From contig JBNRSN020000008.1 in NCBI GenBank assembly GCA_051313645.2, positions 161,324,001 through 161,388,000 on the forward strand: a stretch of 64,000 bases of DNA. The letters are read 5' to 3'. The translations under genes and the position numbers were made by a program. Every line of letters begins with the position of its first letter. Positions within the stretch are counted from its first letter, which is position 1. The stretch comes from Centroscyllium fabricii (taxonomy: Eukaryota). Under the pieces are notes generated by a model. That model made no database searches. It saw nothing but the letters and a program-made list of their open reading frames with translations, and had not been told where the DNA came from. Below, in pieces: positions 12,804-15,800 of the stretch.

Positions 12804-15800
12804 ATGGAGAACGTACCAAAGCCGGAACGCCTAGACATCGATCCCCAGGCACCGAATGCAGCAAACGACTTTGAGCACTGGCTCAACTGCTTCGAAGCTT
12901 ACCTGGAGGCTGCGAAGGTCGGTGATGCCGATAAACGCAAGGTGCTGGTCTCCAGAGTCAGCGGCCAGGTGTACTCACTCATCAGAGACACCAAAACGTA
13001 TGAAGATGCCGTCGGAAAGCTGAAGGGCCATTACTTATGCCCGGTCAGCTCGGTGTACACCAGACACCTACTGGCTACCAGAAGACAGCAGCTGGGTGAG
13101 TCGAACGCAGAGTTCCTCCGGGCGCTCCAGACCCTCGTACAGGCCTGCGACTGCATTGCGGTAACTGCTGAAGAGCACGCAAATTACCTGGTCCAAGATG
13201 CGTACGTGGCGGGGCTCAAGTCCGACCAGGTCCGCCAGCGGCTGCTGGAGCAAGCCAAATTCTCCCTCGACTCCGCTGTCTCACTGTCCAATGCGGTCGA
13301 CGGGGCCCACCAGAGCCTGGACGCCTATTCAGCAGGTAACCCCCACGTCGCCCCATTTAATCCCTGGGCGTCACCAACGCTGCTCCCAGCGCAGGCCCCA
13401 ACAACGGCAGCAGTGGCTGCGACCCCGGCGAAGACTCCAGCAGGCCCCAAATGCTACTTCTGCGGCCAGGTGAAACACCAGTAGCAGCTGTGCCCCGCGA
13501 GGAGCGCAACCTGCGCTAAGTGCGGGAAGAAGGGCCACTTCGCGAAAGTTTGTAAATCCAGCCCGGCCTCCAGACCCAACAGCGCGGCCTGTGAATCCAG
13601 CGAAGCCACTCCATGGCCACAGGTACGGTGCTGCAGCGTGACCCAGCAGCGGCCAGCCGCATGCGAATCACGGGCACCGCTGCCGCATGCGGATCACGGG
13701 CGCCGCCATCTTTGATACAGGCGCGGCCAGCCACATGCGAATCACGGGCGTCGCCATCTTTAATGCAGTCACGACCAGCTGCGTGCGAACCATGGGCGCC
13801 GCCATCTTTGATACAGTCGCGGCCCGCCGCGTGCGAACCACGAGCGTCGCCATCTTTGCGTCGGCAGCGGCCAGCCGTGTGCGAATCACGGGCGCCGCCA
13901 TCTCCAGCATGGCCATTTTGCCACTCACCCCAGAGACGGCCCTAGCCATCCGAAGGCCCCAGCACACCGACAACACTGGCCTCAGCCACTGTCGACCAGT
14001 CCAGGCCACACCCCTTGGCTAATTCCATGATGGAAATCAAGGTCGAGGGGCACGCCACAAACTGCTTGTTTGATACCGGGAGTACGGAGAGTTTTATATA
14101 CCCCAACACGGTGCGGTACTACGCCCTGACAGTCAGACCCATGCGCTACCAAATCTCCCTGGCCGCCAAGCCCCACCGCGGACATCACCGGCTACTGCAC
14201 GGTCATGCTCACCGTTAAGGGGTCAACGTACCACAATTTTAAATTGTACATCCTCCCGCATCTCTGCGCACCGGTGTTACTGGGACTGGATTTCCAGTGC
14301 AACTTGAAGAGTGTGACGATGGCGTACGGCGGGCCCCTGTCCCCCCTCACGGTCAGTAGCTGGGACGACCCCAACCCAGCACTGCGCTCGACCTGCGGCC
14401 TGTCCACATTAAAAGTCGACCCCCCCTCACTGTTCGCCAACCTCGACCCCAACTACAAACCCATTGCGACCAAGACTCGGCGATACAGTGCAGGGGACCG
14501 GGCATTTATCAAGACAGAGGTCGAGCGACTGCTACGGGAGGGGATCATTGAGGCCAGTAACAGCCCGTGGTGGGCCCAAGTCGTAGTGGTTAAGACGGGC
14601 AAAAAGCCGCGCATGGTCATAGACTACAGTCAGATCATTAACCGCTACACCGGGCTCGACGCGAACCCCCTGCCCCGTATCACAGACATGGTCAACCGGA
14701 TCGCCCAGTACAAGGTCTTTTCCACCATCGACCTTAAGTCAGCGTACCACCAGCTCCCCATTCGGGCTGCGGACCGCCGGTACACCGCCTTCGAGGCGAA
14801 CGGGCGACTCTGCCACTTCCTCCGGGTCCCCTTCAGTGTTACTAATGGAGTGTCGGTCTTCCAGCGGGAGATGGACTGAATGGTTGACCAGGACAAGTTG
14901 CAGGCCACCTTCCCCTACTTGGACAACGTCATCCTGCGGCAATGATCAGCACGACCATGATGCTAACCTCGACAAATTTCTCCGTACGGCCCGGCGTTTG
15001 AACCTCACGTACAACGAGGACAAATGCACCTTTTGCACCACCCGCCTCGCCATCCTCGGCTACGTGGTGGAGAACGGGGTCCTCGGACCCGATCCCGATT
15101 GTATGTGCCCCCTGCAGGAGCTGCCCCTACCCCACAACCTCAAAGCTTTGAAGAGATGCCTGGGTGCCCCAGTACGCGGATAAGGCCCGGCATCTCCTCA
15201 AAGCTACAGTTTTCCCACTCCCGGTAGAAGCCCAGGCGGCCTTCACCCGAATTAAACAAGACATCATCAAGGCCACCATGCACGCCACTGATGAGTCGAT
15301 TCTCTTCCAAGTCGAGAGCGACGCATTGGACTTCGCCCTGGCCGCCACCCTCAACCAGGCGGGCAGGCCCGTCGCTTTCTTTTCCCGAACCCTAAAGGGG
15401 TCCGAAGTTCACCACTCCTCGGTAGAGAAGGAGGCCCAAGCTATCGTGGAGGCAGTGCACTACTGGCGCCACTCCCTGGCCAGTAAGAGATTTATCCTGC
15501 TCACGGACCAACTGTCCGTGGCATTTATGTTTAACAACAAACAACGGGGTAAAATCAAGAATGATAAGATCCTCAGGTGGCGGATCGAAGTCTCGACCTA
15601 CGAGTATGACATTCTTTACCGGCCCAGTAAGCTCAACGAGCCCCCAGACGCCCTGTCTCCGGGAACGTGCGCCAGTGCCCAGCTCAACAGACTGCAGGCC
15701 CTCCACGACAACCTCTGCCATCCGGGGGTCACCAGGCTCGCTCACTTCATCAAGTCCCGCAACCTCCCCTACTCTATTGCGGAGATTAGGGTCATGACCA

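Follow-up and report, generated by a model that had tools for sequence, protein, structure and literature searches.

The role of the third catalytic aspartate of reverse transcriptase (RT) is an old question of enzymology. Retroviral RTs cannot do without this residue; Ty1 and Ty3 need it in vivo, though it is dispensable in vitro, and BEL/Pao elements naturally have Asn in its place. According to the available parts of PMC2148107, the engineered Ty1 mutant D211N retains polymerase activity in vitro, with a kpol 223-fold lower and a preference for Mn2+, and its transposition is abolished, 5–10% being regained via RNase H suppressors. The corresponding Ty3 mutant, D214N, retains polymerase activity in vitro with low processivity and is lethal for transposition (PMC5371799, in the available part). 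Among BEL/Pao elements (Belpaoviridae), the part of PMC554778 that was available gives YVDN for Cer7–Cer12, with activity that remains to be determined, and that of PMC9094657 treats YVDN as a mark of nematode belpaoviruses, including the intact Atlas. Cer7–Cer12, Atlas, Tas, Mabel, Nabel, Zebel and the Dan clade carry an Asp-to-Asn change at the last position of motif C, which is the change considered here.

Tf1, Tf2 and Tj1 of the Tf1/sushi group are described as being without a tRNA site and as having a primer site complementary to their own LTR, and the plant Tcn1 and TAR lineages are predicted self-primers (available parts of PMC7175516, PMC4600332 and PMC6317226). In Tf1 the first 11 bases pair and RNase H then cuts (PMC7175516, PMC4600332). 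Cigr-1 is described as a small clade of Ciona, molluscs and annelids in the available parts of PMC6238403 and PMC8556966, which do not discuss its motif C or primer site; YLDN was not found in the searched parts of their supplements. The available parts of PMC3601003, PMC2996927, PMC5443660, PMC10415136 and PMC2774666 hold no content related to the clade, and 'Cigr' is absent from the main text of the last. Literature searches found no report of a YLDN reverse transcriptase or a YXDN retrotransposon, and for YADN, YIDN, YVDN, YMDN and YSDN the relevant literature found was on BEL/Pao only. No literature report was found of YxDN or self-priming in Cigr-1; an earlier note in the founding description or in GyDB/Repbase is possible.

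Four copies of one Gypsy family

The window, that is, the whole stretch of DNA that was analysed, comprises 64,000 nt of Centroscyllium fabricii (GCA_051313645.2, JBNRSN020000008.1, 161,324,001–161,388,000, forward strand); all coordinates below are window positions. It is repeat-rich animal sequence and holds four members (A, B, C and D) of one LTR retrotransposon family, with the following features.

12504–17138, plus strand: copy A, full-length Gypsy element, broken; LTRs 12504–12779 and 16862–17138
12718–12727, plus strand: LTR segment of copy A ending in AATAAAA, pairing with the leader over 10 bp
12780–12803, plus strand: leader of copy A, where a tRNA primer site is expected; gag ATG at +25
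14916–14927, plus strand: YLDN in RT motif C of copy A (tac ttg gac aac)
34656–36153, minus strand: copy B, internally deleted member without RT; 5' LTR 36153–35875; target duplication CAGAC
48160–52622, minus strand: copy C, full-length, broken; LTRs 52622–52322 and 48470–48160
52381–52393, minus strand: LTR segment of copy C, pairing over 13 bp with the leader, which starts at 52321
50550–50539, minus strand: YLDN in RT motif C of copy C (tac ctg gac aac), aligned to YLDD of Ty3
58804–64000, minus strand: copy D, broken; 3' LTR 59116–58804; 5' LTR, ending at 63973, extends beyond the window edge
62051–62040, minus strand: YLDN in RT motif C of copy D (tat ctc gat aat), spanned by Pfam RVT_1

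The first-pass annotation had reported YLDN at three places and near-identical LTRs in copy C. The codon strings are exactly as claimed and all lie in RT motif C, the site being covered by Pfam RVT_1 in copy C as well as in copy D. The LTRs of copy C (301 and 311 nt) differ by 3 mismatches and one gap event, and the copy is flanked by a perfect 5-bp target duplication, CACTG. Those of copy A differ by 15 mismatches, with the target duplication AGAAC/GGAAC. The domain order is protease, RT, RNase H and integrase, as in Gypsy elements, within TG...CA LTRs and together with a PPT and a target duplication.

None of the four copies is intact, each being interrupted by stops, frameshifts, gaps or an insertion. 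In copy A a stop lies at 14877–14879, 12 codons before YLDN, and a frameshift just after the motif; copy C has frameshifts near 51500 and 51050 and an 18-nt in-frame gap in RT at ~50665; copy D has an insertion of ~0.8 kb (60993–61808), a frameshift at ~60035 and a stop in gag. The best protein matches are from sharks and rays, and the contig data indicate that the family is present at very high copy. A six-frame scan of the window yielded no D-type motif of this family, and no tRNA gene was found in the window.

Several other features were recorded in and around the copies. In copies A and B, gag and protease are separated by tandem 48-nt units (13682–13921, plus strand; 34835–34966, minus strand), which in frame encode a 16-residue repeat; each unit has the core CGCCATCTT, which we take to resemble a YY1 site. 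A GC-rich tandem array of ~40-nt units (61102–61684) is found inside the insertion in RT/RNase H of copy D. The window has two other LTR RTs: a single-copy Gypsy element (37631–39753, minus strand) with YLDG at 39348, probably a product of decay, and a third, decayed Gypsy element (20434–23673, minus strand) with QMDD at 21843. CR1/L2-like LINE pieces occupy 8609–10561, 28300–33300, 44400–45800 and 55541–56818. The frames at 24290–26709 (minus strand) presumably resemble a Penelope-type RT element, and 5714–6277 (plus strand) holds what we take to be a DDE transposase fragment of Tigger/pogo look.

Placement of the family

The RT of Ty3 is the best match to the family both by sequence (E 4.9e-30) and by fold, the AlphaFold model of the copy D RT having a normal RT fold (pLDDT 96.5) with Ty3 RT as its best match (TM 0.82). 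YxDD, the usual motif of Ty3/Gypsy, is absent from the window copies, whose YLDN is a variant of their clade. The RT alignment of PMC8220671 (supplement file 4) has a single row bearing the signatures of the clade, 'Cigr1', which on inspection by eye has YLDD and 10 of the 11 visible clade-diagnostic residues; on this match the family would belong to the Cigr-1 clade, a placement made by eye with the founder lying outside our trees. The clade names 'Ronin' and MolGy3/MolGy11 had been considered and were dropped once Cigr1 matched. While the founder, from Ciona intestinalis, has YLDD, two thirds of the clade as sampled here have N at the last position.

No BEL/Pao Pfam family is among the matches of copies C and D, and YxDN is all that the two groups have in common. 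Unlike BEL/Pao, the window family has a Gypsy-type RT, RNase H and integrase, with Ty3 as the best structure match. The YLDN of this clade and the YVDN of BEL/Pao are convergent.

Of the rows in the same supplement file, 11 have YVDN, and names and motifs mark every one of these as BEL/Pao; a further 5 rows, none of them in the Cigr-1-type clade, have YLDN. Three of its rows, LLGY64, LLGY108 and LLGY153, are near-identical Mag-like annelid RTs, all with YLDN, and are a further independent case at the level of a family.

Asp and Asn across the clade

Among the 120 best homologues, N is found in 92 and D in 28; YLDN in the window is therefore not a matter of chance. When the rows are pooled (266), the 236 clade rows comprise 156 with N, 80 with D and none with any other residue, and the outside rows are D in 30 of 30. 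A search at 50% clustering gave 149 new ids, 146 of which cover the motif site; in these, N occurs only at 44% identity or above, and the 30 rows below 40% are all DD.

The clade forms one long branch with an SH value of 100 in FastTree (220 rows) and an SH-aLRT value of 100 in IQ-TREE (48 rows), its deepest rows being D; these trees consist solely of unnamed relatives. The sister rows, judged by their motifs, we take to be Mag-like and CsRN1-like. At least 22 D/N interchanges are required on the 250-row RT tree. On the 147-row RT-RNase H tree at least 18 changes are required, compared with a mean of 42.5 and a minimum of 35 after shuffling. N is therefore clustered on the tree, yet far from a single origin. 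Many inner branches have weak support (in FastTree, 90 out of 245 are open), so that the number and direction of the switches are soft. In the 48-row IQ-TREE subsample, which was picked to contain D/N pairs, the starred branches force 8 changes, and starred sister pairs with different residues are P0052 (N) and P0081 (D), P0097 (N) and P0110 (D), and P0126 (N) and P0095 (D). In the FastTree tree, the starred 16-row subclade that includes the window copies is all N.

The hosts of the clade are sharks and rays, cnidarians, mussels, a sea cucumber and insects. Hosts of N-type elements are, by name, sharks and rays, Oculina, Actinostola, Xenia and Mytilus, and those of D-type elements are Apostichopus, Ischnura and Cyamophila. 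In one assembly all 17 fetched loci are N, among the best 80 of 533 matches that were fetched. D and N families can also occur together in one host, as in the set L042–L080. Relatives of the family were not found in the viral collection, and only generic RT clusters were matched in the ESM Atlas. Clade elements occur in contigs filed as bacterial MAGs (L081–L085) and clade proteins under bacterial labels (P0009, P0044); host contamination is the most likely source of this filing.

These distributions bear on whether N might be a recurrent, mildly harmful G-to-A transition, favoured by CpG across GAC|GAY, that is tolerated and drifts on an ordinary RT background, with D returning by back mutation. 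D and N do differ by one transition, and YxDN is found again in BEL/Pao and a few Mag-like rows. The codon before the site is GAC in 30 of 62 N loci and 6 of 21 D loci, the rows not being independent; in 32 of the 62 N loci, however, the codon before Asn is GAT. Moreover, N is fixed over deep subclades, and the 30 of 30 D in outside Gypsy rows make tolerance of N specific to the clade. We regard drift of this kind as an unlikely explanation.

Selection on N-type enzymes

Of 147 rows, 145 retain the Asp of motif A, and the four acids of RNase H (D/E/D/D) are present in 144, 143, 132 and 118 respectively, the remainder being mostly alignment gaps. Between copies C and D, dN is 0.129 and dS is 2.14 over 242 RT codons. 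Both Asn codons are in use (AAT 47 and AAC 19 among 88 clade loci). The RT of N-type elements is under strong purifying selection. Of the 19 N loci with two LTRs, which represent ~9 families, 5 have an unbroken frame of at least 1150 aa, and 2 of those 5 have identical LTRs; a full frame is absent in the other 14. Together with the LTRs of copy C, these two loci bear out the earlier proposal that N-type elements have transposed recently, and the N enzymes would be working, autonomous polymerases.

The same proposal had held YLDN to be a natural variant and not decay of particular copies, and the data agree: N is present in 92 of 120 homologues, the clade has only D or N, and the RT is under purifying selection. 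YLDN is a trait of the lineage, and Asp/Asn in motif C a natural, selected polymorphism of an old Gypsy clade. The position is the same as in the engineered Ty1 D211N and Ty3 D214N, the difference being that N is here natural, fixed and found in recently inserted elements.

Since the engineered swap abolishes transposition of Ty1 and Ty3 (PMC2148107 and PMC5371799, in part), natural N enzymes would need compensation. No residue that switches together with D/N was found among the 18 best-associated columns (904 tests), tested over 12–14 independent pairs, in which ties dominate. Thirteen residues are at least 90% fixed across the whole clade and rare outside it, several of them near the active site. 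The simplest reading is that D and N members may share a permissive RT background.

The loss of transposition in the engineered mutants would also suit the view that N-type RTs are crippled and that D-type relatives mobilize the N elements in trans. Families of both types may live in one host (L042–L080), and the window copies are all broken. The N-type RT is, however, under strong purifying selection, and the site never drifts to other residues. The shark/ray subclade of 16 starred rows and the 17 loci of one assembly (among the best 80 of 533 matches) are, furthermore, entirely N. Movement in trans seems unlikely on this evidence.

That only D and N occur could likewise be accounted for if A-to-I editing of the RNA turned the Asn codon into one for Asp, or if the residue were deamidated in the protein, the working enzyme being YLDD. 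RNA structure around the codon is, however, not unusual in 9 of 9 loci (z -0.73 to 1.42), and edited genomic RNA would yield D-type progeny, so that N families could not persist. We give this explanation hardly any credence.

A probable self-primer

In 19 of 19 clade loci no TGG adjoins the 5' LTR; two of three outside controls have one there. In its place, leader bases +2 to ~+14 pair with an LTR segment 23–65 nt upstream, which ends in A's followed mostly by GCC or ACC. In 18 of the 19 two-LTR loci, whose LTRs were located by self-alignment independently of the leader, 11 or 12 of the 12 positions from +2 pair, compared with 5–6 of 12 in the three outside controls; the one exception, L015, has lost its terminal CA. 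All four window copies pair over 10–14 bp: in addition to the segments listed above, the leader of copy A pairs over 14 bp with the 3' LTR version of the segment (17073–17086), that of copy B over 14 bp with 35926–35939, and that of copy D over 14 bp with the 3' LTR segment 58860–58873. The self-complementary primer site that the first-pass annotation had noted in these elements is thus present in 18 of 19 two-LTR loci and in 4 of 4 window copies.

The pairing is kept while the sequence varies. LTR and leader covary among the window copies, with A and D having TG, B having CG and C having CT. In 19 families, which were picked for having the pairing, duplex positions 5–9 hold 3–4 different pair types, and a family's own LTR and leader match at a mean of 7.9 of 8 positions, against 4.8 across families. 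Shuffled sequences attain 10 bp in 0–1 of 2000. Within a single family, L006 and L011 differ by a matched change in LTR segment and leader, which reads as compensation at very short distance.

L025 has kept the pairing though its A-rich hexamer is gone, and further downstream L003 and L084/L085 carry a separate AATAAA; it is therefore the pairing that is conserved, and not a poly(A) signal. The fixed register at +2 fits a primer end. A splice acceptor at the AG of the pairing segment was considered and set aside, because pairing runs through the AG and past it. All four window copies have a TATA-like box and, 31 nt later, an initiator-like site, 82–83 nt before the presumed cut. RNA would accordingly be predicted to start ~40 nt before the pairing segment, so that the primer may be internal and a 5' AAUAAA hidden in the duplex. 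As an alternative start, 15 of 19 families have an A 11 nt ahead of the presumed cut, yet the pairing extends to -13 in 18 of 19.

To judge from the pairing, the leader is probably the site at which the clade primes on its own RNA. It has at least 10 bp of complementarity to the 5' LTR starting 0–5 nt after it and is without a tRNA site, as in the rule given for self-primers in PMC6317226. In contrast to Tf1, where the duplex has 11 bp, it has 12–18 bp here, and the pairing segment may lie inside the RNA, rather than at its very 5' end, in the window copies. Its domains and its position in the tree would not make the family a chromovirus; the pol of copy C gave no match to a chromodomain, its last codons lying outside the query.

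Asn and the leader

The first-pass annotation had also held that N occurs together with the unusual primer site. The two are indeed found in the same elements, and this might mean that N adapts the active site to the self-primer, as a variant required for starting on an RNA/RNA duplex formed by the element's own RNA. In agreement with such an adaptation, the leader is present in all four window copies and N in all three of their RTs, and 18 of 19 two-LTR N loci have the leader. The same leader is, however, found in D-type loci. A strict scan, blind to loci that have a single mismatch or lie on a truncated contig, found it in L071 (15 bp), L072 (16 bp) and L076 (12 bp), and a relaxed scan found it with one mismatch in L021 and L042. 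The nearest tree neighbours of these five loci are also D, and the loci come from at least three D sub-lineages. Gag was located in 10 D-type clade loci, of which the other five begin too near gag to include the LTR. The relaxed scan gave no usable leader in L017, L030, L047, L062, L063 and L083, of which L047, L062, L063 and L083 are D-type, and doubtful matches in L065 and L068.

With 80 of 236 clade rows being D in addition, an adaptation of N to the self-primer is very improbable, and the sequences largely refute a strict link of N to the primer. What remains of the earlier claim is co-occurrence without a specific link. The finding that would have told against it, YLDN distributed independently of the leader, is obtained in part, through the D-type leaders and the at least 18 D/N switches. 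N is not strictly coupled to the leader, which is a trait of the clade and older than N, with N toggling within the clade. A looser link may exist, in which priming on the element's own RNA had to be in place before N could arise.

Interpretation

The explanation that we consider likely is that, in an old, animal-wide Cigr-1 clade, the third catalytic position is limited to Asp and Asn and toggles between them, that the N enzymes work, and that the self-primer is a separate matter. The window RTs would belong to a shark/ray branch of this Ty3/Gypsy clade. The two metals would be bound by the Asp of motif A and the first Asp of motif C, and the side-chain oxygen of Asn may substitute for the third Asp as a helper, acting on metal A, the primer end and pyrophosphate release. 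The RT background of the whole clade would be permissive, rather than there being one suppressor for each switch. The minus-strand primer would arise, as in Tf1, through a cut by RNase H behind the terminal A's of the LTR segment. The leader would have come first in time, with N not bound to it.

A stronger version, which we think improbable though deserving of mention, is that the Cigr-1 clade has a two-carboxylate polymerase. Clade-wide changes would then free the third position, namely N-G-V in motif B where a proline form is usual, two loops (W-R-A-Q and D-Y-S), and Gly at +5. Self-priming would be a precondition, the same pairing of traits would hold in BEL/Pao, and the primer would come from within the RNA, cut out at a duplex that also masks the 5' poly(A) signal.

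Returning to the explanation considered likely, the residue swap itself has precedent in BEL/Pao. With its repeated switching and many close natural D/N sister pairs, such as P0052/P0081 and P0097/P0110, the role of the third Asp can be tested on unaltered enzymes. For annotators, YxDN is no sign of a dead element. Furthermore, a probable self-priming lineage is added outside the Tf1/sushi group.
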